A stretch of 64,000 nt of DNA from an uncultured Dehalococcoidales bacterium (GTDB taxonomy: Bacteria; Chloroflexota; Dehalococcoidia; Dehalococcoidales; BS750m-G39), in the NCBI GenBank assembly GCA_964408935.1, contig CAYPBF010000001.1, positions 100,283-164,282 on the forward strand, read 5' to 3'. Every line of letters starts with the position of its first letter. Position 1 is the stretch's first letter. Under the pieces are notes generated by a model. It did not search any database. It was not told where the DNA came from and saw only the letters and a program-made list of their open reading frames with translations. The position numbers and the translations under genes are program-made. Below are positions 16,559 through 46,451 of this stretch, one piece after another.

Positions 16559-16580
16559 GGGTATAAAGGGGGTGAGGTCG

Positions 16581-26881: not shown

Positions 26882-26955
26882 CGGGGTGTAGCGCAGTCTG
26901 GTAGCGCACCTGAATGGGGTTCAGGTGGTCGCCGGTTCAAATCCGGCCACCCCGA
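26882..26955 (+). tRNA. tRNA-Pro (anticodon GGG)
   Basis: Manual cloverleaf: acceptor CGGGGTG/CACCCCG, D-arm GCGC/GCGC, anticodon stem CCTGA/TCAGG with loop AUGGGGU, T-arm GCCGG-TTCAAAT-CCGGC, discriminator A. No CCA is encoded. Confidence 0.9.
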
Positions 26956-26961
26956 CTTTGA
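26914..26961 (+). repeat. 48-bp direct repeat, copy 1 (attL-like; anticodon loop to 3' end of tRNA-Pro plus 6 nt)
   Basis: ATGGGGTTCAGGTGGTCGCCGGTTCAAATCCGGCCACCCCGACTTTGA is identical to 46404-46451. Confidence 0.85.
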
Positions 26962-26971
26962 AGCTAAAGAC

Positions 26972-27103
26972 TGGGTGGGCAGCATAAATTACTTCTCATT
27001 CGGCGCCACCCGTTACGGATCTGTGCCCACCAACAGGCAGTTCACCGACCAAAGGCTGGACGGCACAGGGCTCTAATACTACAGGGCAAGGTACTGCACC
27101 AAG
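26972..27103 (+). pseudogene. relic of an RHS/YD-repeat core C-terminus
   Basis: The frame reads WVGSINYFSFGATRYGSVPTNRQFTDQRLDGTGL*YYRARYCTK*. This matches the RHS core pattern (PFGe...fTGqe.D..TGLYYYRARYYDP) but has an in-frame stop and no 5' part. Confidence 0.5.
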
Positions 27104-27486
27104 TAAACCCCAAAATGGCTTTTTGTTACCTCGTTGCACTTTTCTGACAATTGTTCAATGTTGACTTGGGGATTTATAATTAAAAAGGCGGGATGCCACT
27201 TGCCCGATTACAGCTGAGGCTACCCACACGGGAGGGGGAGGGACAAAAATTTAAACCAGTGAGGAAGAAACTTAGAACTCCTAGTACCTCAGTTTCCCCT
27301 GGCAGAGCCCGCCATAAAGAAAGTATGAAGTGTTTTCAGGTACCATGCGTCTTATCCTATGCTCATTTAGCTCATAAGAAACGCTGTCCACTGCTCTGAC
27401 CCTACCCTACTCTGTATTGAAGAGGTCTTGAACCTTTAGTAAGACCAAAATATTGTCCTCCTCTCACTGCCTTAAACTAAAGAAGA

Positions 27487-28287
27487 TTATTTTTTTAATA
27501 CTATTCCCACCGGATCGATTTCTTTACGTAATATCATTATGTGTTCTTCAGTAGGCTCTGAGCTAGTGTTAATCTCATCCGGTGTAATTATCATGAAGCC
27601 GCTATTCTCTTTCACTTCTTCCAGACTGATACCAGGGTGCAGTGATATCAGCACTAGCTTTTTTGTTTCATTATCAAATCCGTAGATGCCTAATTGGGTG
27701 ATAACGCGATACGGCCCTGACCCTCTTGGTAATCCAGCGTTCTCTCTGCTGCCAGGGCCATCCAGGTAACCAGGTGTCGTTAAAAAATCGACCTTTTCGA
27801 CAAACGTTCTCTTGGACTGGTTGGAAATTATGATTATGAGCCTCCGTGAGAATGAGCCAACGTCATTAGCACCACCGCTACCCGGCAGACGAATCTGTGG
27901 TAAATCATGATCACCGATAACTGTTGTATTTATATTCCCGTATACATCCATCTGAGCAGCGCCCAGAAAACCATAATCAACATAACCTGCCTGGGATAGA
28001 GACATAATGTCATGCATACTGGAGGCGGCTATACCTTGGTAATAGGTTCTAGATTCGCCGACAGAGATAGGGAGTTCGGGTAATATTGGCCCTATTCCAC
28101 CAGCCTCAAAAATAGCAAGCAGGTTAGGGGCGTTCGTTTTTTGAGCCAGCATGGTGGCTATTATTGGCAGCCCAGTGCCTACAAAAACCGATTTCCTATC
28201 CTCAAGCATAACAGCCCCGATAAAGGCCAGATATTCTCTTAAATTGTACTTACCCTCTTGTACCCCGGTTATTGGCACAGATAACAC
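27487..28287 (-). CDS. CoA-transferase subunit B (glutaconate/3-oxoacid CoA-transferase family I)
   Basis: 266 aa with the IFEAGGIG (catalytic Glu region) and LPGSGGANDV motifs. Confidence 0.75.
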   Translation of the reverse strand: MLSVPITGVQEGKYNLREYLAFIGAVMLEDRKSVFVGTGLPIIATMLAQKTNAPNLLAIFEAGGIGPILPELPISVGESRTYYQGIAASSMHDIMSLSQAGYVDYGFLGAAQMDVYGNINTTVIGDHDLPQIRLPGSGGANDVGSFSRRLIIIISNQSKRTFVEKVDFLTTPGYLDGPGSRENAGLPRGSGPYRVITQLGIYGFDNETKKLVLISLHPGISLEEVKENSGFMIITPDEINTSSEPTEEHIMILRKEIDPVGIVLKK

Positions 28288-28301
28288 CTCTTCTCTCTAA
28301 G

Positions 28302-29318
28302 CTATGGCTCTTTGTTTCTTGGAACTACCATCGGCTCCTCGAGTAACTCCCGCTTTATGAGATAAGTGATCCTCTCCTTACCCCCACAGAGTTCCAGGTA
28401 ATCTTGAAAATCATCAACGCTGTAGACATATTTATCTAGATACTCACTTACTCCTTCAGGAGTTTTAGACAAGCTTAGCCATTCCGTGATATGCTCTTCG
28501 TCATAGTAGTAGAGACCTGGCATCTGACAAGGGTGGGAACCATACGGAATCTTAACGACAGAATCCACTACAAAGAATGGTATCTTCGTTTTCCACGGCT
28601 CTCTTCTTATTAATTCGTTATCAACTATCTCTTCTGTCGTTAGTATTAACCTTCTGGCACATCTGGATAACTCTATGTCTTCCACTACGATACCGTCTAT
28701 TTGACCATTGCCATACACGTCACAACGGTGGACATGAATAAAGGCAACATCGGGATAGGCAGCTGGAATTAGGTTAACAGGTTTGCCACTGAAAGGGTCC
28801 CTAACTACCTTACACGAGCTGTATTTACCCGTGTCGGTACCGAGCAGATTACGGCTTGGTATAAAGGGTATACCCATCATGCCAGCTAACAATCGCCATT
28901 GATATCCAGCATTGCTAGTCTCGGCAGCTACACTGCAATGACCGCTTTCAACCATCCGCCTTGAAGCCGGAGATAGTCCCCTGAGCTCATGGCCGAAGGA
29001 ATAAGCCACCTCAACCTTATTTACACAGCCGGAAGCCACTAAAATGTCTAAATCATGGACGGCTGTTTTACCGGCCATAACGATGTTCCTCTTATTTTGT
29101 CGGATAATTTCATAAATAATAGCCATCGATACTCGTACGTGCCCAAATCCTCCACTGGCGATATAATCACCATCATGAATATACGTCGAAACCGCCTCTT
29201 TGACCGACATCATTTTATTTTTCAACTCGCGAGGCTTTTGGTTCAAAACCCATTCCCTTGCCTCATCAGGATCATGCCAGCCTATTAGCTCTCCCTTGCC
29301 TTCACTCAATACTTCCAT
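28302..29318 (-). CDS. CoA-transferase subunit A (GctA-like)
   Basis: 338 aa. It is paired with subunit B, and has GDYIASGGFG and a C-terminal extension as in glutaconate CoA-transferase alpha. Confidence 0.75.
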   Translation of the reverse strand: MEVLSEGKGELIGWHDPDEAREWVLNQKPRELKNKMMSVKEAVSTYIHDGDYIASGGFGHVRVSMAIIYEIIRQNKRNIVMAGKTAVHDLDILVASGCVNKVEVAYSFGHELRGLSPASRRMVESGHCSVAAETSNAGYQWRLLAGMMGIPFIPSRNLLGTDTGKYSSCKVVRDPFSGKPVNLIPAAYPDVAFIHVHRCDVYGNGQIDGIVVEDIELSRCARRLILTTEEIVDNELIRREPWKTKIPFFVVDSVVKIPYGSHPCQMPGLYYYDEEHITEWLSLSKTPEGVSEYLDKYVYSVDDFQDYLELCGGKERITYLIKRELLEEPMVVPRNKEP

Positions 29319-29351
29319 TTCTCTAGTTCCCTGTCTTTAATTAGTCGAATC

Positions 29352-30290
29352 CTAGAAGTTGACCTTGTCCTTCCCCTTAAGCTTGAGCATTTTCCTCACG
29401 TCATCCGGAGTGGCTATCTCTCTCCCCATCCCCCCGGCCATTCGGACTACTTTTTCCACCAGCTCGACGTTGCTCTTGGCCAGAACCCCTCTCTTCACGA
29501 AGATGTTGTCTTCCAGGCCAACCCTGACATGACCGCCCAGCATAATAGCCAGCGGCGCTGTGTTAATGTAACCCAGGCCGGCGCCTATGATTGACCATCG
29601 GTAATTCTCGTCGCCGAGCAACCTATCTGCTGTCTGCTTCATGATCATCACGTCCTCAGGCGCCGAACCAATTGAGCCGACAACACCGGTGACGAACTGC
29701 AGCCAGATGGGAGGCTTTATCATTCCCTGCCTGACATAGTGGTAGATATTGTAGATGTGACTAACATCGTAGCACTCACACTCATTCCTGGTATCGTTCT
29801 CCTGCATGGTCTTTAAAAATATTTCTAGAGAGACAAAAGTATTATGCTGGATAAAGCCCTCCAGCTTATGCAGGTAGTCCTTCTCCCAAGGGTACTGGTA
29901 GTCTTCGTCTTTGTATCTCTGGTAAACACCGCGGAGGCTTAAGCATATCGGCCCCATATTGAAAGAGGCAAGCTCGGGTTTGAAGGTGGGAACAACCTCT
30001 ATCCTTTCTTCTGGGGTCATGCCGACAGCGCCGCCCGTGGTCAGGCCGATGACCACATTGCTGTGCTGCTTTATTTTGGTGATAATCTCCCGGAACAGCG
30101 CCGGGTCTGAGGTGGGCCGGCCGTCTTTAGGGTCACGGGCGTGAATATGCACCACCGCCGCCCCGGCCTCAGCCGCTTTGACCGACTCATCGGCAATCTG
30201 GTCCGGGGTTATCGGTAAATAAGGGGTTTGAGTGGGCACGGTCAGACTGCCCGTAGGAGCGCAGGTTATTATCAATTTCTCCATTGTCAT
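29352..30290 (-). CDS. beta-keto acid cleavage enzyme (BKACE/DUF849; 3-keto-5-aminohexanoate cleavage enzyme family)
   Basis: 312 aa with LIITCAPTGS...TP.LPITPDQIA....A.EAGAAVVHIHARDP.DG.PT and a GHVRVGLEDN motif. Confidence 0.85.
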   Translation of the reverse strand: MTMEKLIITCAPTGSLTVPTQTPYLPITPDQIADESVKAAEAGAAVVHIHARDPKDGRPTSDPALFREIITKIKQHSNVVIGLTTGGAVGMTPEERIEVVPTFKPELASFNMGPICLSLRGVYQRYKDEDYQYPWEKDYLHKLEGFIQHNTFVSLEIFLKTMQENDTRNECECYDVSHIYNIYHYVRQGMIKPPIWLQFVTGVVGSIGSAPEDVMIMKQTADRLLGDENYRWSIIGAGLGYINTAPLAIMLGGHVRVGLEDNIFVKRGVLAKSNVELVEKVVRMAGGMGREIATPDDVRKMLKLKGKDKVNF

Positions 30291-30352
30291 CTCCCTAAAG
30301 CTTTATTTCTCCTTAGCGCATTTTCTACAAACTTCAGCTCTTCCCCCCGCGT

Positions 30353-31480
30353 CTAGCTTTCCACCCTGGTATTCCGTAGATTCAAGCCCTGCTCTTTCCA
30401 GAAGGCCAGCAACCGCTCGGCATCCAAGAAAGCCTCCGGGCAAAGTACGCCCTTCTCCTTGACCTCCACACGGTAAAGCATCTCGGCAGCAAAGGCGCAA
30501 TTGTGGCCGGTCATACCACTGGGCAGCCCGGTTATATGGTGGGTATAGGTGACGTCTCTGCTGCCTTCCTTACCCTTGATAATGAAATACCTGTTGGCTG
30601 TGGTGAAGCGTTTCTTCTCCTTCTTCAGGAGGGCTGAGTTGTTTAGCCCTTCGACGATAAAGTCCCTGGGTACTATTGAGCTAGTGCTCGGTTCTACTAG
30701 TCCAGAGTTGGCGAGGCCAAGCTCAATACATTTTATGAACCACTCATTAATCCAGGTGGGCAAATTACAGAGCTTGAAGACCACTGTCTTTACCCCTTTT
30801 ATGTACCGGGGCAGTGTCACCGGCTCCGGGTGGCCGAAATAGAAGGCCTGCTGTTTACCGATCGGCTCACCAAAGTCTATCTCCTCCCTGCCCCAATCAT
30901 TTGGTGTCTGCAGCCGGCCATCAATAAACTGGAGGTTGGAATCCATTAAACAATGGAAAATATGGTAGAGGACGGCACGGCCGAAGCCACCCCCCAGGCC
31001 GACACCCACCAGTATTTGGATTTCAGCCACTTCATCAAGCTTATCGGCACTATGCTTGATTAGGGCATTGCTGAATCCGGGGCTGTTGCCACACCCCAGG
31101 CAGATGGCTACCCCTGCCTTTTTGGCCGCATCATCAAGGGTGAATGCCTCTTGAATGACGTCGGCATCATCACAGATATCAACATAGTCAGTGCCGGCCG
31201 CTATAGCCGCCTTCATGGGGCTGATGCCGTATCTATAAAAGGGGCCGACACAGTTGATTACCAGATCCTTGCCCTTCATCAGCCCGACCATGGCTTTATA
31301 ATCAGTGACATCTATTTCTTCTGCCTTTAGCTTCTGGTCCTGGCATAAGGAGGCTTCCAACTTTTCCCTGTCTATCACCCTGTCAGCCAGTATGACTTGG
31401 CTGATCTCGGGCTTAGCGATCAAATCACCAGCAATGACGACACCGGACATGCCGAAACCACCGAGGATTAATATCTTCAC
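30353..31480 (-). CDS. saccharopine-dehydrogenase-like NAD(P)-binding oxidoreductase
   Basis: 375 aa with an N-terminal MKILILGGFGMSG Rossmann motif and the overall Sacchrp_dh pattern. The start overlaps the upstream VOC stop. Confidence 0.65.
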   Translation of the reverse strand: MKILILGGFGMSGVVIAGDLIAKPEISQVILADRVIDREKLEASLCQDQKLKAEEIDVTDYKAMVGLMKGKDLVINCVGPFYRYGISPMKAAIAAGTDYVDICDDADVIQEAFTLDDAAKKAGVAICLGCGNSPGFSNALIKHSADKLDEVAEIQILVGVGLGGGFGRAVLYHIFHCLMDSNLQFIDGRLQTPNDWGREEIDFGEPIGKQQAFYFGHPEPVTLPRYIKGVKTVVFKLCNLPTWINEWFIKCIELGLANSGLVEPSTSSIVPRDFIVEGLNNSALLKKEKKRFTTANRYFIIKGKEGSRDVTYTHHITGLPSGMTGHNCAFAAEMLYRVEVKEKGVLCPEAFLDAERLLAFWKEQGLNLRNTRVES

Positions 31481-31917
31481 TCTTTTCCTTCCTCTAAAAG
31501 CTCAATCAAGACCTTATTGCCCAGTAGAAAAAAGATAATTTTGGAGGGCTGAGTGCTTCCCGGTCTGAAGCTTCTGTCATAGCCCGCGCATTCCACCGGT
31601 GGAGACACCAACTTAAAGTCTCTCTCCACCAGCTCATCCACCACGCTATCAATATCGTCAACCTCGAAGCACAGGTGGTGCAGCCCACCCCCCTTTCTTT
31701 CCAGAAATTTTGTTACGGGAGAGTCATCGGAAAGGGGTTCCAACAACTCAATGTATGTCTCCTCCCCTTCATTCGAAGCGATAAAGCTGGCCCTGACCTT
31801 TTGGATGGGGTCCGACTCAGGCTGCGTCGCCTGCTTAAGACCCAGGCTACGAAATACCTCGACCAGCTCTGAAAGGTGCGGGACAACCAATCCAATATGG
31901 TGCAACCTAAGCTTCAT
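31477..31917 (-). CDS. VOC/glyoxalase-fold protein, methylmalonyl-CoA-epimerase-like
   Basis: 146 aa with HHIGLVV...YIELLEP...GGGLHHLCFEVDDI, the metal-ligand pattern of MCE-type epimerases. Confidence 0.65.
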   Translation of the reverse strand: MKLRLHHIGLVVPHLSELVEVFRSLGLKQATQPESDPIQKVRASFIASNEGEETYIELLEPLSDDSPVTKFLERKGGGLHHLCFEVDDIDSVVDELVERDFKLVSPPVECAGYDRSFRPGSTQPSKIIFFLLGNKVLIELLEEGKE

Positions 31918-32402
31918 GTGTTCACCCAGGACCTCCAGACTACCTCAAAGATAATCCCCCCCACCCTTCGGGTGTCGAAATAGCAGGCCTTCAAATCTCC
32001 CTTATTGGCTTCTACATACATTTCCGCTCTGGTTAGGGGGGCAAAACCGGCTTTTACGAATCTGTTGAAAGTCTCTTCATAATCGGAGACCGGAAAGCCG
32101 ATATGCTGCAAACCCTCGCCCCGAGTTTCCAAGAACTCCTTATGCAGCGACTCTCCCTCAAGCGGCTGGATTAACTCCAACACGATATCGCCCCACACGG
32201 CCTTGCCCTGCTTTAGCCTGAAAGAAGAAGGCCTCTCTCTAAACCATTGCTTTTCGGGCTTGAATTCGTACACGTCAAAGGGCCCCAGCCCGAATACGGA
32301 TGAATAGTAGTCCATTGCCTTTTCCAGATCCCTAACCACTACACCTATATGTTCTATAGGAGGCAGGGAAAACTTTTCTCTAAGCGCTTTGGTATCGTTC
32401 AC
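31914..32402 (-). CDS. VOC/glyoxalase-fold protein
   Basis: 162 aa with IEHIGVVVRDLEKA...LELIQP...GLQHIGF. Confidence 0.6.
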   Translation of the reverse strand: MNDTKALREKFSLPPIEHIGVVVRDLEKAMDYYSSVFGLGPFDVYEFKPEKQWFRERPSSFRLKQGKAVWGDIVLELIQPLEGESLHKEFLETRGEGLQHIGFPVSDYEETFNRFVKAGFAPLTRAEMYVEANKGDLKACYFDTRRVGGIIFEVVWRSWVNT

Positions 32403-32419
32403 TTCTTCTTTCTCTTTCC

Positions 32420-33733
32420 CTATAGCCTTTTTATAGTACGGTCAACGCAATCCAGCACCTTATCCACATCCGCCTTGGTAACGGCGCTGCAGACGTACCA
32501 CCGGCCACCCCACATAATTAGCACCCCCTCCTCAGCCAATAGGACACGGAGTTTGTTCTGCTTTTCTACATCCGCCTCCTTCAAATCTCTGGCGCTGTAG
32601 GCGGCTTCCCTGTCTATGAACTGGAAGTAGAATACTCCCCTTGGTCCTTGGATGAGTGTTGGTATGCCGTGCCTCCGACTGATCTCCTGCAGACCATTCA
32701 TCAGCGGCTTTTGGAGCTCGTCGATTTTCCGATAGTAGGCACTATTATCTTTTTCGAGGATGGTCAGACTGGCCAGAGAGGCAGCGATACCGAAGGGGTA
32801 CCCGTTAAAAGTCCCCGCCCCGATAACCCTCCTCTCGAGAAGCATGTCCATGATTTCCTTCTTTCCGGCAACGGCCCCCATGGCCACACCGCCGGCCAAG
32901 GCTTTACCGAAGGTGGTGATATCGGGCGTTACATCGAACAACCCCTGGGCGCAATTAAGCGCTACCCTGAAACCGGTAATAACCTCGTCAAAACAGAGCA
33001 TAATGCCGTACTTGGTGCATAATTCCCTGACCTTCTCCAGGTAGCCGGGCCGGGGTGAGCAACAACCGCTATTGCAAAGTATAGGCTCCATGATAACTAG
33101 GGCCACCTCTTCTCCATATCTCTCCAAGACCCTTTCTAGGGTTTCTATGTCGTTCCAGGGCAACTTGAAAGATTGCTTGAAGGCTTTGGGATACCTGCCT
33201 TCGGTGCCCAAAGGGTCGGCCTCGCTTTCCACGGCAAAGGGCATGCCGGTGGAATTGTCATTGACCACTCCGCCTAGGACATTATCCAGCCATCCGTGGT
33301 AATGCCCTTCAAAACGGATAAAATAGCGCCGTTTGGTATAGGCGCGGGCAAGCCTAATAGCCAGCTGGACTGCCTCGGTTCCCGAGAGGCAGAAGCGTAC
33401 CTTCTCGGCGCAGGGGACATATTTTACAAACTTCTCCGCCAGCTCCACTTCCATCGGGGTCTGGGCGGCCCCGGAGACTAGGTAGTAAAGAGTGTCCAGT
33501 TGCTGCTTCAAAGCTTTGATGTATTCCCTGTTGCTATAGCCGAAAATGCCTGGGCCAGCTCCGCACATGAAATCAATATATTCATTGCCGTCGACGTCCC
33601 AGAGATGGGCTCCTTCGCCTCTGATAATGAAATTGGGTTTGGCGCTTAACGGACTCCTGAGGTTGCTCTGTGGCCCGGGCATAACCTTTAATGCTCGTTC
33701 CTGCCACTTCATATTTTCCGCATTATTTAGCAT
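32420..33733 (-). CDS. class-III (omega/beta) aminotransferase, GSA-aminomutase-like
   Basis: 437 aa with CLSGTEAV, FDEVITGFR and TFGKALAGG (PLP-lysine) motifs. Confidence 0.85.
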   Translation of the reverse strand: MLNNAENMKWQERALKVMPGPQSNLRSPLSAKPNFIIRGEGAHLWDVDGNEYIDFMCGAGPGIFGYSNREYIKALKQQLDTLYYLVSGAAQTPMEVELAEKFVKYVPCAEKVRFCLSGTEAVQLAIRLARAYTKRRYFIRFEGHYHGWLDNVLGGVVNDNSTGMPFAVESEADPLGTEGRYPKAFKQSFKLPWNDIETLERVLERYGEEVALVIMEPILCNSGCCSPRPGYLEKVRELCTKYGIMLCFDEVITGFRVALNCAQGLFDVTPDITTFGKALAGGVAMGAVAGKKEIMDMLLERRVIGAGTFNGYPFGIAASLASLTILEKDNSAYYRKIDELQKPLMNGLQEISRRHGIPTLIQGPRGVFYFQFIDREAAYSARDLKEADVEKQNKLRVLLAEEGVLIMWGGRWYVCSAVTKADVDKVLDCVDRTIKRL

Positions 33734-33790
33734 ATTGGGCGCCTTTTGCTTTATTCAGCTAACCTTTAAATCCCACCAGCACTTACTGTT

Positions 33791-34804
33791 TTATCCGAGC
33801 TGCATCTTCCTGAGGTTATCGGGGTAAAGCGCTTTGAGAATTCTGAGCATTTTAGCATCCCTGTCCCCGACCGCTTCTTCGTGTGTACTGTCCTTGGTAT
33901 AGCTATAATAGCCCCTGCCCTCAATACTAATCCTGTAATCTACCATCATCTCTTTTATCACCTGTCGAACCCTGCCCGGTCCCCATTCCTTTTCAAACAC
34001 TTCTGTGCTAGCCAGACGCTGCTCTTCGCTTTGATTACTGACTTGATCGGCATAAGCCATCATAAACCGCTCAAAAAGTCCCTGCACCGGTAGACGGAAA
34101 CCAAAAGTAGTGCGCATCACCGTGTCGATATCTTCGGCGTTGGAAACGCCTTCTTCACAGAGCGATGCGGCTTCATTGAGAACGGCAAACATTAGCCGCC
34201 CACCAATGATGGCATCTTTTTCCTTGCCAATCTTAATAGGGATCTTACCTATTTGTTCTAAAAAGGCACAGGTTCGCGCTACAGTCTCCTCCGAAGTCTC
34301 CAGACTGGGCACTACTTCCACTCCAGGCACGATGCAGGGCGGGTTGAACCAGTGTGCCACAATAATAGCATCCTTCCGTTCGCATAATACTCCAACCTGA
34401 GAAGCTGGTAGAGGGCCACTGTTGCCCGCCAGTATAGTGCCCTTTTGGCTCATAGACTCCATATCTTTATAGAGCTTCTGTTTCAGCGGCAGGTTATCTG
34501 TGATGGCCTCAAAAACAATCTGAACATCGCTCGCAGCAATCGCCAAGTCTGTGGTGGTCCTGATTCGGGCTAACACCTCTCGTTTTGTCTGTTCTGTGGC
34601 TAAGCCTTCACTGATGAAAGTATCCATATGGGAAGCGTTGAGCGATGTTGCCTTCTCCAAGACGGCTTCCCCTATGTCCTGAAGGATAACGTCATAGCCA
34701 CCGAGAGCGCATGCCAAGGCAATGCCCCGTCCCATACTTCCCCCACCAACTACCGCTACCTTCTTTACCTCTTTTAGCCAGACTTCAGCATCATTGACCG
34801 CCAT
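33791..34804 (-). CDS. 3-hydroxyacyl-CoA dehydrogenase family oxidoreductase (also the fold of L-carnitine dehydrogenase)
   Basis: 337 aa with VAVVGGGSMGRGIA (NAD-binding), the NSGPL and HWFNPP motifs, and a 3HCDH C-domain. Confidence 0.8.
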   Translation of the reverse strand: MAVNDAEVWLKEVKKVAVVGGGSMGRGIALACALGGYDVILQDIGEAVLEKATSLNASHMDTFISEGLATEQTKREVLARIRTTTDLAIAASDVQIVFEAITDNLPLKQKLYKDMESMSQKGTILAGNSGPLPASQVGVLCERKDAIIVAHWFNPPCIVPGVEVVPSLETSEETVARTCAFLEQIGKIPIKIGKEKDAIIGGRLMFAVLNEAASLCEEGVSNAEDIDTVMRTTFGFRLPVQGLFERFMMAYADQVSNQSEEQRLASTEVFEKEWGPGRVRQVIKEMMVDYRISIEGRGYYSYTKDSTHEEAVGDRDAKMLRILKALYPDNLRKMQLG

Positions 34805-34918
34805 ATTAATCTCCTTGAAGAGAATTTATGGGTTTAGTTAGTAGCATATCCTTTTGTACCCTCTCCTTCTGAATAAAGAGGAGGTGATTAAAGGAGTAAG
34901 ACCCTAAACCGCCCACTT

Positions 34919-36136: not shown

Positions 36137-36250
36137 TTAATAATCTATATTCAGTTGATAGTGACGCCCTTTTACCAGATGGTATGGTCTGGAGATATCG
36201 CCTTCACATCAAGTAGTAATTCCCTCCTCCTGCGTTCACCAAAGCCACTA

Positions 36251-37213: not shown

Positions 37214-37293
37214 ATTGTTCTTCCTTTGCCCAAATTATCTACCCGACGAATAGGCATCGGTTTCCTCCCACACTATGGGATACCCAGCTTTCA

Positions 37294-38932: not shown

Positions 38933-40123
38933 ATGAAAACGAGAACGTTTACCATAGTGTTTGCGATTTTGAGTATAATAGTAATCATGTCCACTTTTAG
39001 CATGCTGGGTTGCGGTGGTGAGCCCGAAGCCGTTGTTGAAGAATGGAACATCCCCTTACTAGTCCCTGTAACCGGTTATGCGGCACCATTTGGCCTTGAT
39101 GCCGAATGGGGAGCTGAAAGGGCAATGGAGGAGATAAATAATGCTGGCGGCATCAGGGGATTGCCGCTTAAGTTGACCTTGTATGATTCAGCCTTCGATC
39201 CCTCCAAAACAGTCCAAGTTATGGCCCAAGCACTTGAGGATAACCCATTAGTAATCCTCGGGCCAATGGGTGCCATCGAGACGCAATCGTGCCAAGACCT
39301 GGTCATTGGCCAGGGCATTCCTATATTCACCGACCTCTCCTTTCCGGCAATGCGCGATGAATTTTCACCTTGGGGCTTCTCTCTTTACGCAGATTGGGAC
39401 GCGGCAAATACCCTGGCTATAAGGGAATGGCTCAGGCTTAATCCAGACATCCAATCTGTGGTCTTAGTCCTTGTTGCAGGAGAAACATCCCATCTCCAAA
39501 GCATTGCCGTCGCAGAGAGAGAACTTGCAGCCCTGGGTATAGAAGTGAAAGGCAGGGTCGAGGTTTCTTGGGGTGGTCTAGACGCAGGAGCCGCGGCAGT
39601 AAAGGCTTTGGACCTAAACGCTGACGGATACTACAGTGCTCTTAACCAAGTTGAACAAGCTATGTTTATTAAAGCTCTGTACGAGCGAGGTATGACTGAA
39701 GGAAGGCGGATAGTCTCTGGTGGTGCCTGTATCTCAGTGACATTCTTTGAGATAGGTGCAGGATACTCAGAGGATACATATGTTTGGAATTCCTACGATA
39801 TGGATTACCAGGGTGATATTTGGCAGACTTATGTTGAAGCCTATAAGGCTGACCATGACGGTGGATTGCCATACTCCATAGCTATTGGCGATTACTATGA
39901 GGCTGTCTATGCCATAAAAACGGCCATTGAAAATCTAGGGATAACCGGTGACCCGGACAAGCTTGCCGAGGAAAGATTGGCGATAAAAGACTATCTCCGA
40001 GATTCAGATGGTATTCCTGGTCTCCAGGGTGAGTGGGGCTATACGGATGGCCTAAAAGATTCCCCACTATACATGTTCCAAATAAAGGACAACGAAGCGG
40101 AGTTGATTAGCCAGTTTCGCTAA
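38933..40123 (+). CDS. ABC transporter substrate-binding lipoprotein (LivK/type-1 PBP family)
   Basis: 396 aa behind AAGGAGG, with a signal peptide and lipobox (MLGCGG). The INNAGGIRGLPLKL motif is typical of branched-chain amino acid/amide binders. Confidence 0.8.
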   Translation: MKTRTFTIVFAILSIIVIMSTFSMLGCGGEPEAVVEEWNIPLLVPVTGYAAPFGLDAEWGAERAMEEINNAGGIRGLPLKLTLYDSAFDPSKTVQVMAQALEDNPLVILGPMGAIETQSCQDLVIGQGIPIFTDLSFPAMRDEFSPWGFSLYADWDAANTLAIREWLRLNPDIQSVVLVLVAGETSHLQSIAVAERELAALGIEVKGRVEVSWGGLDAGAAAVKALDLNADGYYSALNQVEQAMFIKALYERGMTEGRRIVSGGACISVTFFEIGAGYSEDTYVWNSYDMDYQGDIWQTYVEAYKADHDGGLPYSIAIGDYYEAVYAIKTAIENLGITGDPDKLAEERLAIKDYLRDSDGIPGLQGEWGYTDGLKDSPLYMFQIKDNEAELISQFR

Positions 40124-40224
40124 AGAACCAGAAGTTGGGATTGAAAGAATGCTATGTGAGGGGCACTGGCACTAAACACTCTCTCGTCAGTGCCAGTGCC
40201 CCGGTTAGAGGGAGGGAATTCAAC

Positions 40225-40866
40225 ATGTTTGACCTTAAGAAGATAGCCGAGAGTGTGATTGCCATGGACGTTGGCAAGACTGAGGAACTGACTAAGGCTG
40301 CCATAAAGGCCAAGATACCCGCTGAGGAAATATTGAAAAAAGGGCTCATTGCTGGCATGGAGGTGGTGGGTAGACAGTTTCGGGATGGCGAACTCTTCAT
40401 GCCAGAGGTACTAATGTCCGGGGAAGCCATGAAAGCAGCTATGAAATCGCTTAAACCGTTACTGACCAAGGAGGGTACTGTTAAAAGCTTTGTTGGCAAG
40501 GCGGCGATAGGCACTGTTGAGGGTGACATTCATGACATCGGCAAGAACCTTGTCATTATGATGCTTGAGGGGAATGGGTGGGAAGTCATTGATCTTGGCA
40601 TAGACATCTCTCCCGAAGAATTCTGTCAGGCAGTGAGGGAGAACGACTTTCAGGTTCTGGGCCTATCGGCTCTGCTCACGTCAACGATGGATAGCCAGGT
40701 AAAAACCATAGAAGCATTAGAAGCCGCTGGATTAAGAGACAAGGTCAAGATAGCCATTGGCGGCGCCCCTGTAAACCAGGCCTTCGCTGACCAGATTGGC
40801 GCTGATGCTTATGCCGCCAATGCCGGAGAGGCAGCCGCCAAGTTCAATAAACTGATAGGCAAGTGA
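40225..40866 (+). CDS. corrinoid (cobalamin-binding) methyl-carrier protein, MtaC/MtbC type
   Basis: 213 aa from an ATG behind GAGGGAGGGA. It has an N-terminal B12-binding_2 cap helix bundle and the GDIHDIGKN (DxHxxG) motif, plus SALLT and GGAP motifs. Confidence 0.85.
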   Translation: MFDLKKIAESVIAMDVGKTEELTKAAIKAKIPAEEILKKGLIAGMEVVGRQFRDGELFMPEVLMSGEAMKAAMKSLKPLLTKEGTVKSFVGKAAIGTVEGDIHDIGKNLVIMMLEGNGWEVIDLGIDISPEEFCQAVRENDFQVLGLSALLTSTMDSQVKTIEALEAAGLRDKVKIAIGGAPVNQAFADQIGADAYAANAGEAAAKFNKLIGK

Positions 40867-40917
40867 TATGGTTAGCTAATAAGTACGAGAAAGCTATCGT
40901 TACTTTGGAGGCAGAAA

Positions 40918-41958
40918 ATGAGCGAAATGACTGGTACCGAGCGTATGTTGAAGGCGATGAGACTTCAGGAGCCAGATAGGGTTCCCCATTTCGAGCTCTA
41001 TCTTGACCCTTCGGTGGGGCAGGCGATACTCCCGGGAAGTTCATTCTTTGACTGGGTTGAATACTTCGATTGGGATGGAATGCTGGCATGGATTGGTGAG
41101 TTGTCCAAGCCTGTGGACGAGTCAGGGAAACGTTTGCTGTCGGAATGGGGCTACATTGAGAGGGCGGCAGGAACGCAGCGCCCCCTTCCCACTGATCCGC
41201 CAGTGAAGTCGGAGAAAGACCTTAAGACCTGGAAACCACCCGACCCGGACAATCCGAATAGATACGGGGCTGTAAAGGAGGAGGTAAGAAGGTATAAGGG
41301 ACAGAGAGCCATTATTGGCATTAGCCTCGACCCTTTCGAGATGGCTAGCTATGTGCGTGGCACCGCCGACTTTTACATGGACCTCGTTCGTAATCCGGAT
41401 TTCGCAGACCGCTTGACCGGCATAATCCGCGACCACTACATCAAAGAGATGAGGAATGCCGTTGAGCTTGGGGCGGACATATGGTATTTCGGTGCACTCT
41501 ATGTCGCCAAGGAAGGGCCCTTGATTTCCCGGGAACTCATTGCCAAGCATGTCATGCCTTTTTTGAAATCCCTGGTTGATGAAGCCCATCGCTTGGGTGT
41601 CCCTGTTATATACCACCTTGACGGAAACATCCTGCCGATAATTGACCTTATTCTAGATACTGGCATTAATGCTTTGCACCCGATTGACCGGTTAGCTGGG
41701 CTGGACCTTGGTGAGATGAAAAAGAACTATGGAGACCGTGTCTGCCTAATGGGAAACATAGATTGCGGTTCAACCCTTGTACATGGCACGGTGGACGAGG
41801 TGCGAGACGAGGTAAAGAGATGCATCCGGCAGGCAGCAGTAGGTGGAGGCTATATTTGTAAGTCCAGCAACACCATTCAGTACGGAACCAAGCCGGAAAA
41901 CTATGAAGCCATGGTCAAAGCTATCCACGAGTATGGCAAATACCCAATATCGCTCTAG
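40918..41958 (+). CDS. URO-D-fold methylcobamide methyltransferase (MtaA/CmuA-like)
   Basis: 346 aa with ERMLKAMRLQEPDRVP at the N-terminus. It has YHLDGN where MtaA has the H-x-C zinc ligand region. Confidence 0.75.
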   Translation: MSEMTGTERMLKAMRLQEPDRVPHFELYLDPSVGQAILPGSSFFDWVEYFDWDGMLAWIGELSKPVDESGKRLLSEWGYIERAAGTQRPLPTDPPVKSEKDLKTWKPPDPDNPNRYGAVKEEVRRYKGQRAIIGISLDPFEMASYVRGTADFYMDLVRNPDFADRLTGIIRDHYIKEMRNAVELGADIWYFGALYVAKEGPLISRELIAKHVMPFLKSLVDEAHRLGVPVIYHLDGNILPIIDLILDTGINALHPIDRLAGLDLGEMKKNYGDRVCLMGNIDCGSTLVHGTVDEVRDEVKRCIRQAAVGGGYICKSSNTIQYGTKPENYEAMVKAIHEYGKYPISL

Positions 41959-42019
41959 ACGCTAGACAGCAGCAGGTACGATGCGAATCATAATCGATCT
42001 TTTACAAGGAGGTTATTAG

Positions 42020-42847
42020 ATGGCGGGAAAGCACGGGAGCGCTGAGAATCACCAATTAACGGTGGCACTTACATTTGATTTTGATGCCGAATCTGTCTTT
42101 ACCGGTATGTTTGGTGCTGGTGGGTTGGAATCGCGAGGAGTATACGGTGCACGGGAGGGTATGCCAAGGATTCTAAAGTTGCTAAGTAAGTACGAATTAC
42201 CGGTAACATTTTTCGTCCCGGGCTATACTGCCGACCACTACCCGGATATTGTACGTTCTATTGCGGCCGATGGACATGAAATAGCCCATCACACTTATTC
42301 ACATACGCCGGCACCAGCTCTGAAGCCTGAGGAAGAAAAGGCTGAGATAGTGAGAGGACTAGAAGCTTTGGAACGGGTAGTAGGCATAAAGCCACGCGGT
42401 TACCGCGCAGCAGCTATGGGACTTTTTGACGTGACAATTGAACTCCTGCTTGAGTATGGTTTTGAATATGATGCTAGTGAGATGGGAGCCGACCGCCCTT
42501 ACTGGCTGGAATATAAAGGGAAACGCACCGATATTGTTGAATTGCCTTCATCTCCTCAACTTGCCGATACCACTCATTTCCTCTTCATGTTTCCCCCAAA
42601 CTATATGACGGGATTGGCCGCGCCGTCTAAAGTCGAGGAGATATGGCATGAGGATTTCAAAGGGGCTTATGAAGAGGGGGGTGATATCTACTTCATGCTG
42701 ATAATGCATCCTTTCGTCATAGGTCACCTCCACCGGATGAGGATGCTGGAGAGATTTATTGGCTACATGTTAGAGCACGATGGTGTCTGGTTTGCCCGGA
42801 TGGGTGAGGTGGCTGATGATTTCCGGAAACGGCAGAACTTGGGCTGA
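42020..42847 (+). CDS. polysaccharide-deacetylase (NodB/CE4) family hydrolase
   Basis: 275 aa with LTFDFD, PVTFFVPG and GHEIAHHTYSH motifs. Confidence 0.75.
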   Translation: MAGKHGSAENHQLTVALTFDFDAESVFTGMFGAGGLESRGVYGAREGMPRILKLLSKYELPVTFFVPGYTADHYPDIVRSIAADGHEIAHHTYSHTPAPALKPEEEKAEIVRGLEALERVVGIKPRGYRAAAMGLFDVTIELLLEYGFEYDASEMGADRPYWLEYKGKRTDIVELPSSPQLADTTHFLFMFPPNYMTGLAAPSKVEEIWHEDFKGAYEEGGDIYFMLIMHPFVIGHLHRMRMLERFIGYMLEHDGVWFARMGEVADDFRKRQNLG

Positions 42848-42912
42848 TTTCCTAGACGTAGGATTGTTAGGGTATAAAAAATTACAGGAAACTGCTATAG
42901 CAATCTAAGGCC

Positions 42913-43677
42913 ATGAGCATACTTTCAACTTCAGGATTGAGTAAGCATTTTGCTGGCATTCATGCTCTCGATAAATTAGATATTACTATCGAAGAAGGTC
43001 AGATCCATGGTCTTATTGGCCCGAATGGTTCTGGAAAAACGACGTTCTTTAATGTAGTTACCGGCGTGCTGCCGGCTACAGAGGGAAAGATTTACTTCGA
43101 TTCCGCAGATATCACTAACTTTAGTCCTCAAGTTATCACCAAGATGGGTATCGGACGCACTTTCCAGAGAGCAATACTTATGCCGATGATGAGCTGCTTA
43201 GAGAATGTAATGGCGGGAATGTACTGCCGCACTAAAACAAACATACTGGGGACATTCTTCCGTTTACCTTTTACTCACTCGGCACAAGAAACCGAAATGA
43301 AAAAGCGAGCGATGGAGCTTTTGCAGTTTGTCGGTCTGGCAGATTCTACTGAGCGCTGGAGCAGCGAGCTAGTTTGGATAGAGAGCCAGCTCCTGCAAAT
43401 AGCCCGCGCCCTAGCTGTCGAGCCAAAGCTCCTGTTACTTGATGAGCCCACGGCGGGGATGGGACCTGATGAAACTGAAAGAGTCGACAGATTAATCAAG
43501 CAAATACGGGACGACATGGGGATAACGGTTATTTTGGTGGCCCATGACGTTAAGCTAGTCATGGGAATCTCAGATTGGGTCACGGTTCTAAGCTTTGGTA
43601 AAAAGATCGCTGAAGGAACACCGATACAGGTGCAAAACGACCCTGCGGTTTTGGAGGCTTACCTTGGCCAAGAATAG
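42913..43677 (+). CDS. livG: ABC transporter ATP-binding protein (LivG type)
   Basis: 254 aa with GPNGSGKTT, a Q-loop and LLLDEPTAGM. Confidence 0.85.
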   Translation: MSILSTSGLSKHFAGIHALDKLDITIEEGQIHGLIGPNGSGKTTFFNVVTGVLPATEGKIYFDSADITNFSPQVITKMGIGRTFQRAILMPMMSCLENVMAGMYCRTKTNILGTFFRLPFTHSAQETEMKKRAMELLQFVGLADSTERWSSELVWIESQLLQIARALAVEPKLLLLDEPTAGMGPDETERVDRLIKQIRDDMGITVILVAHDVKLVMGISDWVTVLSFGKKIAEGTPIQVQNDPAVLEAYLGQE

Positions 43678-44398
43678 GGAAAGTATCCTCAAGGTTGAGA
43701 ACCTTTCCGTATCCTATGGGCGTATTAGTGCAATTAGGCAGGTTAGTTTGGAAGTTAATAAGGGGGAGTGCGTAGCCCTTCTTGGAGCAAACGGCGCTGG
43801 AAAATCGACTTTAATGGCAGCGGTGCTCGGCGTGAGTCGAGCTATAAGCGGTACTATTCGTTTTATAGGGCACGATATCACACATAAATCTACTGACAAC
43901 GTCGTGGCTTCTGGCATATCTGTGGTTCCCGAAGGTCGTGGTATTCTGCCATTAATGTCGGTGATGGAAAATTTACAGTTGGGGGCTTACCATCTCAAAG
44001 GTGATAGCAATGAACTCTTAAATCGAATGTTTGATCGATTCCCCATTTTATCTAAGCGGAGGGAGCAACCAGCAGGAACTCTAAGCGGTGGAGAGCAACA
44101 GATGTTGTCTATAGCCCGGGCGTTGATGGGAGCCCCTAAGCTGCTACTAATGGACGAACCATCTCTAGGACTAGCTCCAATACTGGTAAGTAAGCTCTTC
44201 GATACAGTAGTAGAGTTAAAGAACGAAGGGTATACCATAATTTTAGCTGAACAGAACGCCCGAAAGGCACTAAAGTGCGCTGATAGAGCCTACGTTCTTG
44301 AAGTCGGTCGTGTTGTGCTTGAAGGCACTGCTCAAGAGCTAACTAATAATCCGAAAGTGCGTCAGGCTTATTTAGGCGGCACTGATAAACTTTGTTGA
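43664..44398 (+). CDS. livF: ABC transporter ATP-binding protein (LivF type)
   Basis: 244 aa from a TTG behind GGAGG. The longer track ORF would overlap livG by 83 nt. Motifs are GANGAGKST, LSGGEQQML and LLMDEPS. Confidence 0.8.
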   Translation: MAKNRESILKVENLSVSYGRISAIRQVSLEVNKGECVALLGANGAGKSTLMAAVLGVSRAISGTIRFIGHDITHKSTDNVVASGISVVPEGRGILPLMSVMENLQLGAYHLKGDSNELLNRMFDRFPILSKRREQPAGTLSGGEQQMLSIARALMGAPKLLLMDEPSLGLAPILVSKLFDTVVELKNEGYTIILAEQNARKALKCADRAYVLEVGRVVLEGTAQELTNNPKVRQAYLGGTDKLC

Positions 44399-44411
44399 GA
44401 GAGAAGCTCTT

Positions 44412-45287
44412 ATGGAAGTCTTTGTTGCCCAGTTAATTAACGGTCTGGCAATGGGTAGCATTTATGCCTTGGTCGTTGTAGGTGTTAACCTAATACTTTT
44501 GGTCAGGGGGGTCGTGCATTTCTCCTACGCCCACATTATGGTGATCTCTATGTACGTATCCTGGATGGTATTAGGACAAACGAATAATAATCTAGCTTTA
44601 GCAATCTTCTCAGGTATTATCGCTGCTACTTTGCTAACCACTGCCACCGAGTTTGTTTTCCGACCTCTAGCTGTGCGAGAAGCCCTTCTGGAAACAATTA
44701 TAGTAGCCATGGGTATAGGCATAATACTTACTGAAATAATGTCTCACTTCCTCCACCGCGGCTTGCCTATTAGCTTTCCGGCGAGCATAACAGGGGGAGG
44801 AGCTGTGGTGCAACTTGGTATGATTACTTTCTCACTGGCACACGTATATTCATTGCTTGGTAGTATTGGTGTTGTGATCGGGCTTTTCTTTTTACTGTAC
44901 CGCCATAAACAGGGTAGAGCTTTTAGGGCTATAGCCCAAAACCTTGGCGTAGCACGCCTTCTGGGCATTCCTGTTAATAAGACAGGCATTTACAGCTTCG
45001 CCATAGCCGGCGTATTGGCAGGCATCATCGGTGTGTTCATGGCTATGACTCTCGGTATGGCCTCATCTTCTCTCGGTGATACTCTTGCAATCAAAGCGCT
45101 GGTACTGATGTTATTCGCTGGTATGGGTAATTTGAAGGGGGGGCTGATCTGTGCCTTACTTTTGGGTTTGGCGGAGGCATTGACGATGGCTTATCTGCCA
45201 GGACGATGGACCGAGGCTATAGTCTTTGGGGCGATAATGATAGTAATAATACTGAGGCCAAAAGGGTTATTCGGTACCCAGGCGTAA
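44412..45287 (+). CDS. livH: ABC transporter permease (LivH type)
   Basis: 291 aa and polytopic, starting QLINGLAMGSIYALV like the family. Confidence 0.85.
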   Translation: MEVFVAQLINGLAMGSIYALVVVGVNLILLVRGVVHFSYAHIMVISMYVSWMVLGQTNNNLALAIFSGIIAATLLTTATEFVFRPLAVREALLETIIVAMGIGIILTEIMSHFLHRGLPISFPASITGGGAVVQLGMITFSLAHVYSLLGSIGVVIGLFFLLYRHKQGRAFRAIAQNLGVARLLGIPVNKTGIYSFAIAGVLAGIIGVFMAMTLGMASSSLGDTLAIKALVLMLFAGMGNLKGGLICALLLGLAEALTMAYLPGRWTEAIVFGAIMIVIILRPKGLFGTQA

Positions 45288-45320
45288 CCCTTGGTAAAAC
45301 GCTAAAGGAGCTCAGCAGCG

Positions 45321-46172
45321 ATGTCGTTGTCAGCAGTATATTACCTTCAGTTTACAGCCGTTTTTATTCTACTAACCTGGGCTTTCTACATACCCTTTCG
45401 TGGTGGGCAATTATATAATGGACCTATCTATTGTATGGCTATTGGCGGCTACTTTTCTGCCTTTTTGGCTCGGGATCTGGGTTGGCCCTTCGGGCTGGCA
45501 CTTATTTGTGCAGTAGTGGTAGGGACAATCTTCGGCTTCCTACCAGCTCTCGGATTCGCTCGAACTACTGGCATAGCCACAGCTATAGCTTCTATAGCCC
45601 TGATCTTCGTAATCCAATCAATTATTACGAATGCAGAGTTCTTGGGCGGCTCGCGGGGTTTTTGGGATATTCCGAAAGTGGATTACCTGTTGCCGATAAC
45701 CTATGGAATTGTCTTGATTGTCGGCATTATTATCTACCGGCTTGACCACTCTCGCCTCGGGAGAGCTATCGAAGCAATTCGCGTCGACCCTAGTCTGGGT
45801 GCTACCATGGGTGTTAACGTGACGCGGCTTAGCATGTTTACCCTGACACTTTCGTCAGCAATAGGTTCTCTGTCTGGGGTCATTTATGCGTTCACCTTGG
45901 GTACCATCCATCCTAGTAGTTTTGGCTTTTCTCTGCTACTTTATTCGTGGACTATGCTGTTTATTGGTGGTCGTTATACTATGTGGGGGGCGTTAGTTGC
46001 CGCCCCAATTCTGTGGGGTCTACCCCAATGGGTTCCTCAAGCCATCGCTGAATACACCAACATTCTTTATGGAGCATTACTCATCATCATCCTCCTCCTT
46101 CGACCTCAGGGTATCATTGATAGACGTACAATACAACGCATAAGGGGCGTGGCTAGGATTTGGCGTAGATGA
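45321..46172 (+). CDS. livM: ABC transporter permease (LivM type)
   Basis: 283 aa and polytopic. It follows livH as in liv operons. Confidence 0.8.
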   Translation: MSLSAVYYLQFTAVFILLTWAFYIPFRGGQLYNGPIYCMAIGGYFSAFLARDLGWPFGLALICAVVVGTIFGFLPALGFARTTGIATAIASIALIFVIQSIITNAEFLGGSRGFWDIPKVDYLLPITYGIVLIVGIIIYRLDHSRLGRAIEAIRVDPSLGATMGVNVTRLSMFTLTLSSAIGSLSGVIYAFTLGTIHPSSFGFSLLLYSWTMLFIGGRYTMWGALVAAPILWGLPQWVPQAIAEYTNILYGALLIIILLLRPQGIIDRRTIQRIRGVARIWRR

Positions 46173-46403
46173 TTACTGGTTTCTGTGAGTACTAGCTGCC
46201 ACTGATGCACAATTCCGTTATCTTCACTGTGTATGGGTAGTGTACTAAAGCTTGTTATATTACTCTACGTCACAAAAGAGGCTTTTGTGCACTCGTAACC
46301 CGAAGGCTACAGGCAGGGGTATTGGCTTTAGGAGAGTTAGCAGCATATAATGCAATTCGAAAGGAGGCAAGCTGCCCACTTTGCTTGCTTTTAGCTTCCG
46401 TAG

Positions 46404-46451
46404 ATGGGGTTCAGGTGGTCGCCGGTTCAAATCCGGCCACCCCGACTTTGA
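46404..46451 (+). repeat. 48-bp direct repeat, copy 2 (attR-like partial tRNA-Pro 3' half)
   Basis: Identical to 26914-26961. The upstream sequence cannot form the acceptor or D arm, so this is not a second tRNA gene. Confidence 0.85.

Follow-up and report, generated by a model that had tools for sequence, protein, structure and literature searches.

A 19.4-kb catabolic island without recombination genes at tRNA-Pro(GGG) of an uncultured Dehalococcoidales bacterium

How did a 19.4-kb block of catabolic genes come to lie between an intact tRNA-Pro(GGG) gene and a displaced copy of its 3' part in an uncultured Dehalococcoidales bacterium? The block belongs to contig CAYPBF010000001.1 (assembly GCA_964408935.1), of which we analyzed a stretch of 64 kb (64,000 nt; hereafter, the window) with coordinates counted from its first letter. 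An earlier note, made by reading the sequence alone, had described the block as an immobilised metabolic island whose integration module had been deleted. Our analysis supports the horizontal acquisition of the island and its insertion by attachment (att)-type recombination at the 3' half of the tRNA gene. For the locus as a whole, we consider it probable that a horizontally acquired tRNA-gene (tDNA) island was inserted at tRNA-Pro and has since lost its recombination module. Three features delimit it.

26882..26955, plus strand: intact tRNA-Pro(GGG), the integration target, whose 3' part forms attL (ARAGORN; Rfam tRNA match, 66.2 bits)
26914..26961, plus strand: attL copy of a 48-nt direct repeat, made of 42 nt of the tRNA 3' part and CTTTGA
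46404..46451, plus strand: attR copy of the same repeat, a 3' part of the tRNA that was displaced and has no 5' half

ARAGORN and Rfam agreed on a single tRNA in the window, tRNA-Pro(GGG) on the plus strand (26882-26955/6). The 48-mer ATGGGGTTCAGGTGGTCGCCGGTTCAAATCCGGCCACCCCGACTTTGA, composed of the last 42 nt of this gene and 6 nt beyond it, recurred on the same strand with 48/48 identity, as the earlier note had reported; the two copies start 19,490 bp apart and leave 19,442 bp between them. A third copy was absent from the window at up to three mismatches, neither half of the 48-mer occurred elsewhere in it, and such a repeat arose in 0 of 100 dinucleotide-preserving shuffles. The second copy lacks the tRNA 5' half, also as described before, and ARAGORN called no tRNA there. 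Alignment to the Rfam model placed the start of the repeat at the first base of the anticodon loop (AUGGGGU), from which it runs through the 3' strand of the anticodon stem, the variable loop, the T arm, the 3' strand of the acceptor stem and the discriminator base (42 nt), and then into CTTTGA. Across 98 fetched related loci the 42-mer was confined to full tRNA-Pro genes, indicating that it is not the generic repeat whose presence would have spoken against an island.

Tyrosine integrases put circular elements into tDNAs, restoring the gene and displacing a fragment. Two marks by which the Islander database recognizes such islands were found here: an intact tRNA gene whose replicon also carries, in direct orientation, a displaced fragment of that gene, and a crossover at a sublocation typical of integrases (anticodon loop or T-loop/junction), in this case the anticodon loop. 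Islands with an anticodon-centred attP constitute the largest class in Islander (2083 of 3919; PMC4383910).

We compared the composition of the island (26962-46403) with that of its flanks, using 1-kb windows for GC and 5-kb windows for the tetranucleotide distance to the flank profile. GC was 0.481 in the island, 0.549 in the left flank and 0.553 in the right flank (0.551 outside), and the 1-kb values were 0.482 +/- 0.028 for the island and 0.551 +/- 0.037 for the flanks (Mann-Whitney p = 8e-8). Similarly, GC at third codon positions (GC3) of the genes was 0.52 in the island and 0.68 in the flanks (p = 3e-6), and the tetranucleotide distance was about doubled inside (0.22-0.36) relative to outside (0.11-0.16). 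The composition is unlike that of the host, a general mark of genomic islands, and the lower GC previously estimated from spot counts was upheld by the full computation.

The genes that adjoin the two ends allowed the site to be compared among relatives.

25456..26772, minus strand: left flank, SurA-like parvulin peptidyl-prolyl isomerase (PPIase; Pfam), whose synteny with the tRNA is kept across relatives
46481..47236, minus strand: right flank, DUF169 gene (PF02596), which directly adjoins tRNA-Pro in relatives

The SurA-like protein places the window in the Dehalococcoidia, with best matches 60-67% identical in GTDB genomes and JGI metagenomes, and the order homoserine dehydrogenase (HomDH), SurA, tRNA-Pro(GGG) is widely kept across the relatives' loci. 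In four of these (L002, L008, L009 and L010), the SurA-like gene and tRNA-Pro are followed directly by DUF169 with no insert, which is the empty site that the earlier note had predicted, its flanks preserved on both sides. The DUF169 orthologues at the empty sites are 77-84% identical to that of the window, and the beta-CASP gene comes next after DUF169 in L002 and L009. In L002, the Dehalococcoidia metagenome-assembled genome (MAG) E44_bin88, the tRNA is 100% identical to the window tRNA, and similarity ends after it. The segment is absent from the same site in these four relatives, all of them distant (~63-66% SurA identity), and none was found to carry it there. The repeat, the composition and the empty site all agree on an island at tRNA-Pro(GGG) with an att-type scar.

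The closest SurA homologues, 94% and 88% identical, lie on contigs of 1.8-2.1 kb (L095 and L096) that end inside the tRNA. We considered these ends as breaks at the repeat and rejected the idea, as L095 stops 30 nt into the tRNA in the manner of a k = 31 unitig. Contigs L097 and L098 end inside a structured repeat (described below), and the same k-mer explanation applies to them. All four contig ends are k-mer breaks, in sequence that co-occurring genomes have in common, and are therefore uninformative on the island.

No recombination gene was found within these borders. None of the island open reading frames (ORFs) matched integrase, excisionase, resolvase or transposase families, no ORF of at least 120 amino acids across the whole window matched a recombinase family, and the gaps contained neither a small ORF with a recombinase match nor a small excisionase-like ORF. 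Six-frame translations of both att-proximal gaps gave no recombinase match at E <= 10, and tblastn with the tyrosine integrase of a relative that has the same tRNA site (L085) found nothing in the window at E <= 10. PF00589, the family that Islander looks for as the integrase, was absent from the island ORFs and the six-frame ends, and the island contains no Resolvase or Recombinase domain. Pfam families for phage structure, conjugation (type IV secretion system or relaxase) or recombinases, which would mark a prophage, an integrative and conjugative element (ICE) or an integrative and mobilizable element (IME), were likewise missing from it. A composite transposon or insertion mediated by an insertion sequence is not indicated either, as there is no transposase and there are no long terminal repeats besides the tRNA fragment. 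Scans of IMG/VR for the tRNA 42-mer, for the att arm and for relatives of the L085 integrase were all empty. The absence of integrase, excisionase and transposase ORFs that had been noticed before was confirmed for the island, its non-coding ends and the 64 kb.

The two ends of the island carry further elements.

26960..26983, strand not assigned: inverted-repeat arm next to attL, GAAGCTAAA-N6-GTGGGCAGC, which pairs with 46371-46398
46371..46398, strand not assigned: inverted-repeat arm next to attR, GCTGCCCAC-N10-TTTAGCTTC
26990..27100, plus strand: RHS-core-like pseudogene fragment of ~36 codons with an internal stop (TIGR03696 Rhs_assc_core, E = 9.3e-4, 19.7 bits)
27184..27316, plus strand: structured repeat of ~130 nt, a candidate non-coding RNA (ncRNA), 95.5% identical to a copy in L093 and 88% to one in L026

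The arms, whose motif is GAAGCTAAAGACTGGGTGGGCAGC, form an imperfect inverted repeat just inside both 48-nt copies. They share four inverted 8-mers, a number reached by 44 of 200,000 shuffles and by 105 of 200,000 random pairs of real 45-nt windows. In a circular form, the tRNA-identical core would lie between the two arms, the arrangement expected of an attP, and the left arm is probably part of the former attP. The reconstructed attB reads tRNA + GAGGTAGCC..., and the reconstructed attP reads ...TTAGCTTCCGTAG + 48-mer + AGCTAAAGACTGG.... The RHS fragment scored below the cut-off (19.7 against 32.5 bits) and had no Pfam match, and its segment is absent from the L093 copy; as a relic and a sign of gene decay at the tRNA-proximal end, it is plausible but weak. 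The earlier description of the tRNA-proximal 0.5 kb as non-coding apart from an RHS relic needs amendment, in that the relic is a weak match and the same stretch also holds the structured repeat.

Between its ends the island is densely coding, with 19 intact genes that Pfam and NCBIfam all assign to transport, regulation or metabolism and with non-coding gaps only at 26962-27486, 38548-38932 and 46173-46403.

27487-38547, minus strand: operon of 11 genes (Pfam, NCBIfam)
27487..29318, minus strand: two coenzyme A (CoA)-transferase subunit genes (B, then A; PF01144), a sub-module of lower GC (GC3 0.42-0.44) that is missing from the L093 copy
29352..38547, minus strand: catabolic operon; its first part encodes a beta-keto acid cleavage enzyme (BKACE), a saccharopine-dehydrogenase-like protein, two VOC/glyoxalase proteins and a class-III aminotransferase, and the rest a 3-hydroxyacyl-CoA-dehydrogenase-like protein, an M20 amidohydrolase, a tandem AsnC/Lrp regulator and a 417-amino-acid URO-D/MtaA-like protein
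38933..46172, plus strand: uptake and methyl-transfer operon of 8 genes (Pfam, NCBIfam), divergent from the minus-strand operon and ~90% identical in nucleotide sequence to L093 and L094; it encodes a Peripla_BP_6 binding protein (38933-40123), a corrinoid protein closest to MtgC, an MtaA/CmuA-family methyltransferase, a PuuE-like deacetylase, LivG/LivF-like ATPases and two LivH/LivM-like permeases

The self-contained set of transporter, regulator and catabolic genes that had been described for the segment is thus represented by these 19 genes.

The same cargo was found in two other loci, L093 (GCA_034419075.1, contig DAOULR010000016.1, 78.8 kb) and L094, both reached through a cluster mate of the 417-amino-acid protein. 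L093 matched 29348-46288 of the window with ~90% nucleotide identity and 27144-27322 with 95.5%, and in the catabolic operon the ~90% identity went with ratios of nonsynonymous to synonymous divergence (dN/dS) of 0.10-0.19. Missing from the L093 copy are both CoA-transferase genes and the segments next to the att sites (26962-27143 and 46289-46403), and neither the 48-mer nor a tRNA-Pro fragment was detected in L093. Unrelated genes flank the cargo there, with a GC of 60% in the left flank against 48% for the cluster. For the 17 genes common to the window and L093, dN/dS was 0.15 and dS was 0.32. The cargo is intact and under purifying selection, and a copy of ~90% identity in another context, combined with this dN/dS, indicates that it is functional and has moved, in agreement with its having been acquired.

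Divergence from L093 was uneven along the cluster. Two URO-D/MtaA-family genes (37294-38547 and 40918-41958) had dS values of 0.06 and 0.09, whereas those of their neighbours were 0.18-0.77, which suggests recent recombination or gene conversion within the cluster, limited to the methyltransferase genes. Homologues of the 417-amino-acid protein that are 79-83% identical (L087, L088 and L090) lie in unrelated contexts, indicating that conservation of the cluster as a whole does not extend past L093 and L094. Next to the permease genes of the L093 cargo, a degenerate tRNA-like sequence (2076-2154, minus strand) appeared with relaxed ARAGORN settings only, and 2236-2256 (plus strand) is identical over 21 nt to the final codons (VGKMLAN) of the integrase gene of the L085 type; a 19-mer of this match also occurs in two unrelated AT-rich viral contigs, which is about chance level for that collection. 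The two sequences may be the scar of another integration event, but are suggestive at most.

Other elements have used the tRNA-Pro(GGG) site. In three relatives, the same tyrosine-integrase gene abuts it, shortened from the 5' end to three different extents.

L085, 142-1029: truncated integrase, whose ORF ends 32 bp from the tRNA 3' end (tyrosine recombinase PF00589, E = 9e-27)
L014, 3098-3325: truncated integrase, with 77 amino acids and an in-frame stop remaining against the tRNA
L007, 1049-1192: truncated integrase, with 49 amino acids remaining against the tRNA

The L085 integrase consists of the catalytic domain only, with PDB integrases aligning from their residue ~112 onward. It is fused to a phage sliding-clamp-like gene of which the C-terminal third is left and which shares 67% identity with a protein on IMG/VR contig L099, indicating that a deletion removed the 5' ends of both genes. 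Metabolic genes follow the integrase remnants in L014 and L007. An acyl-CoA dehydrogenase of L014, assigned by eye from the ORF translation, is a candidate; L007 carries an MttB-family (trimethylamine methyltransferase superfamily) fragment (1-240, minus strand; PF06253, E = 4.5e-8), so that corrinoid-dependent methyl-transfer cargo recurs at the hotspot. In L003, the left att arm of the window follows tRNA-Pro directly (24/27 nt), and the contig ends after 83 bp. These results indicate that tRNA-Pro(GGG) beside the SurA-like gene is a recurrent prophage/island integration hotspot in this lineage, that different elements have used this tRNA and that loss of the recombination genes is the rule in the cases seen.

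In more distant relatives (L020, L023, L028, L032, L034, L038, L075 and L003), tRNA-Pro is followed within ~100 nt by paired direct copies of a 12-nt motif (TAGACCACCTGA or TAGACAACCTGA), which might be sites for a recombinase or regulator belonging to another element family. An ORF near tRNA-Pro in L020 was considered as the C-terminus of a large serine recombinase, but this candidate had no Pfam match and was dropped.

For the insertion, we propose the following course. A circular element would have carried an attP made of the 3' 42 nt of tRNA-Pro(GGG) and ~6 nt, flanked by the imperfect inverted-repeat arms. Site-specific recombination of the tyrosine-integrase type with the chromosomal tRNA-Pro, crossing over within or beside the anticodon loop, would have restored a complete tRNA at attL and left the original 3' half at attR, adjoining DUF169. 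The recombination module was most probably lost by deletion at the end of the island where the RHS fragment and non-coding DNA remain, and the element would be unable to excise by itself. Deletion of the integrase from this element is plausible by analogy with the decayed integrases at the same tRNA in L085, L014 and L007 and in view of the RHS fragment by attL; that the island is immobilised is likewise plausible. The earlier conclusion, an immobilised island with its integration module deleted, was therefore borne out in part: the acquired island and the lack of an integrase stood, and the deletion of the module, of which no remnant is detectable, is plausible.

Several points weigh against this course of events. 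With no integrase remnant in the island, the deletion of the module was not itself seen. The sequence next to the tRNA in L085, L014 and L007 is the 3' end of an integrase gene, unlike in the window, and these integrases may belong to another element family. Both att-proximal segments are without a counterpart in L093, so that no intact relative of the element was found. Furthermore, the window comes from a metagenome-assembled contig, for which distinguishing the integrated from the excised state needs reads. Constraint on attR, if this is what kept the repeat perfect at a dS of ~0.32, would argue against a dead relic.

This last point leads to the alternative that survives best, which we regard as possible but distinctly less likely than an island that lost its own module. 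Cis-mobilizable elements (CIMEs) keep attL and attR without integration and transfer genes and can be moved in cis by accretion (PMC6323972). The island has intact attL and attR, with identical 48-nt repeats and arms at both ends, and no integration, excision or transfer genes; with its perfect att copies and flanking arms, it could still be moved in cis or in trans, by an integrase whose gene lies elsewhere. It might then be a hitchhiker with functional attL/attR, excised by or co-transferred with an element that has a tRNA-Pro-specific integrase and is present or accreted. The repeat is identical at all 48 positions even though the cargo has diverged from its nearest copy by a dS of ~0.32, so that either the insertion here took place long after the two copies split or attR has been conserved; a recent insertion could explain the perfect repeat equally well. 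In favour of a hitchhiker, the inverted-repeat arms are conserved, the same arm lies by tRNA-Pro in L003, and the cargo has another genomic context in L093. Against it, the L093 copy has no such att arms. Tyrosine-integrase elements of relatives do use the same tRNA, but their integrases are truncated and adjoin a different att-proximal sequence, and no helper integrase occurs in the 64 kb. The concept itself is documented, including by integrase-less ssrA islands in Dehalococcoides (PMC3146451, PMC6323972). In its fullest form, to which we give a similarly low weight, this explanation would make the island a CIME-like hitchhiker of uncultured marine/subsurface Dehalococcoidia that integrases of temperate-phage-like elements targeting tRNA-Pro(GGG) could move between genomes, with the L093 copy as one such transfer. 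If so, it would be spreading an uncharacterised pathway that joins corrinoid-dependent demethylation with beta-keto-acid cleavage.

A second alternative, which we find doubtful, is that the cargo never integrated by itself but entered an older att-flanked hotspot by homologous recombination or replacement of the interior, in which case the repeats would stem from an earlier occupant, for example one bearing RHS. The island is a compositional mosaic, in which the CoA-transferase genes with a GC3 of 0.42-0.44, absent from L093, stand beside a BKACE-to-aminotransferase block with a GC3 of 0.60-0.67. The spread of dS from 0.06 to 0.77 along the cluster, the att-proximal arms and RHS relic that are not common to L093 and the several different occupants of tRNA-Pro among relatives fit such a replacement. 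However, no flanking homology or second set of repeats marks a swap, and the region shared with L093 ends 115-182 bp from both repeats, which fits the arrival of one unit as well as swapping.

An assembly artefact, in which an extrachromosomal or otherwise located element bearing the 48-mer was threaded in at the tRNA or the contig is chimeric at this conserved gene, appears very improbable. The tRNA is 100% identical between different genera, and short-k assemblies of related samples break inside it, making it an ambiguous node of the assembly graph. Against this, a chimera is unlikely because the flanks are equal in GC (0.549 and 0.553) and exactly syntenic with single contigs of relatives; the junction between the right end of the island and a tRNA fragment without its 5' half must in any case exist in real DNA; a 19-kb circle without replication or recombination genes is implausible; and 48 bp is below the usual final k-mer or read length. 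Least credible of all is an ancestral segment that the relatives lost by recombination between the repeats: with a SurA identity of only ~63-66%, the empty-site genomes do not formally fix the direction of change, but the composition departs strongly from that of the host, a displaced tRNA half results from insertion, the cargo lies elsewhere in L093, and four independent relatives are without the segment while none has it at this site.

An acquired tDNA island without its recombination module, the reading that we prefer, has counterparts among known systems. Like the tDNA islands of Islander (Hudson, Lau and Williams 2015, PMC4383910), it has an intact tRNA and a displaced 3' fragment in direct orientation that mark both ends, and its block of identity runs from the anticodon loop through to the gene's 3' end, as in Williams' anticodon-loop sublocation class; its 19-kb size and foreign composition also fit. 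By contrast, it has no integrase gene, and because Islander requires one, this island would be filtered out. ICEberg 2.0 lists 235 CIMEs (PMC6323972). CIME19258 and CIMEL3catR3 of Streptococcus thermophilus resemble the island in having attL and attR intact around cargo only, with no integration or transfer genes; they differ in host and target, which here are an uncultured member of the Dehalococcoidia and tRNA-Pro. For the present island, a cognate ICE or IME that uses the same att site was not identified, and mobilization is putative.

Integrase-less att-flanked islands are known from Dehalococcoides as well as from streptococci (PMC3146451, PMC6323972). McMurdie et al. (2011) described 15 integrase-less ssrA islands in Dehalococcoides and proposed them to be CIMEs or fixed relics (PMC3146451). 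These come from the same class of bacteria, are low in GC and have at their borders a direct repeat of a small-RNA gene's 3' end. Their target is ssrA, however, with a 20-bp repeat, a CcrB-like serine recombinase (DsiB) and rdhA genes, whereas the present island has tRNA-Pro, a 48-bp repeat anchored in the anticodon loop, as is typical of tyrosine integrases, and catabolic cargo; it shows none of the marks of the ssrA-island family (ssrA, 20-bp repeat, DsiB module). The decayed prophage-type elements L085, L014 and L007 share with it the tRNA-Pro(GGG) target and the loss of the recombination module, which is progressive in them, but differ in the sequence next to the tRNA and, in L085, in having phage-like neighbours, of which the window has none. 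The island is equivalent to a decayed tDNA island or a cis-mobilizable element, a known category, and is well delimited but not surprising.

For the cargo, its gene content tentatively points to a self-contained uptake-and-catabolism unit for a methylated or acylated amino or phenolic compound. The corrinoid protein and the two URO-D/MtaA-family proteins hint at a methyl-transfer step, and the amidohydrolase, deacetylase, aminotransferase and AsnC regulator at an N-substituted amino compound, both with low confidence. The dehydrogenase, BKACE and CoA-transferase might turn a beta-hydroxy/beta-keto acid into acetoacetate and acyl-CoA; by analogy, the beta-hydroxy acid would be oxidised to a beta-keto acid, from which acetyl-CoA-dependent cleavage would give acetoacetate. 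The logic of this trio is common to three known routes, carnitine catabolism, lysine fermentation and phloroglucinol degradation. The closest model for the BKACE was 3,5-dioxohexanoate:acetyl-CoA acetone transferase, at 406 bits and hence below the cut-off of 430. The phloroglucinol-pathway reductase and cyclase (PMC10470551) are absent, and the assignment to this route from the BKACE score was dropped. Carnitine, lysine-fermentation and O-demethylation readings of the substrate are possible; none is supported well enough to claim.

The island leaves the current understanding of genomic-island function unchanged. With its ends defined to the nucleotide and an empty site in relatives, it provides a clean example of the movement of a catabolic module in uncultured Dehalococcoidia, which are known almost only from MAGs, and the hotspot illustrates that recombination modules at tRNA-Pro(GGG) decay quickly. 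For annotation, it follows that island finders that require an integrase miss such islands. The pair of URO-D/MtaA-type methyltransferases, the MtgC-like corrinoid protein, the BKACE and the LIV-type importer make up a candidate pathway for methylated/acylated organics in anoxic sediments.

The structured repeat at 27184-27316 occurs in further copies in L093 (19260-19392), L026 (89-221), L088 (17092-17227, 18814-18915 and 19636-19758) and L099 (5793-5910). Its invariant ends are GGCGGGAUGCCACUUGCC ... UUUCCCCUGGCAGAGCCCGCC, and its predicted fold is multi-helix with one branch point, 91% of cells being paired and 5 pairs showing compensatory changes; G-U pairs favour the plus strand of the window. 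No Rfam match was found. Copies lie convergent to gene 3' ends in catabolic clusters and in one IMG/VR viral contig (L099), and Logan contigs break inside the repeat. It is a dispersed element that is not specific to the att site and a candidate for a new ncRNA or REP-like family in Dehalococcoidia.

The genes flanking the island are housekeeping genes: GTP cyclohydrolase I, a pyridoxal-phosphate enzyme, HomDH and the SurA-like PPIase on the left, and DUF169, the beta-CASP RNase, a superoxide dismutase (SOD) and a universal stress protein (Usp) on the right. Three ORFs of low GC (0.40-0.43; GC3 0.35-0.50) without a Pfam family lie at 15851-17054 and 9714-10283, two of them between the phosphoenolpyruvate carboxylase gene and carB, and may be small separate acquisitions. 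In the chromosomal flank, a heliorhodopsin gene (54319-55086, plus strand; PF18761, E = 8.5e-95) is located between DJ-1/PfpI and ferritin-like genes.

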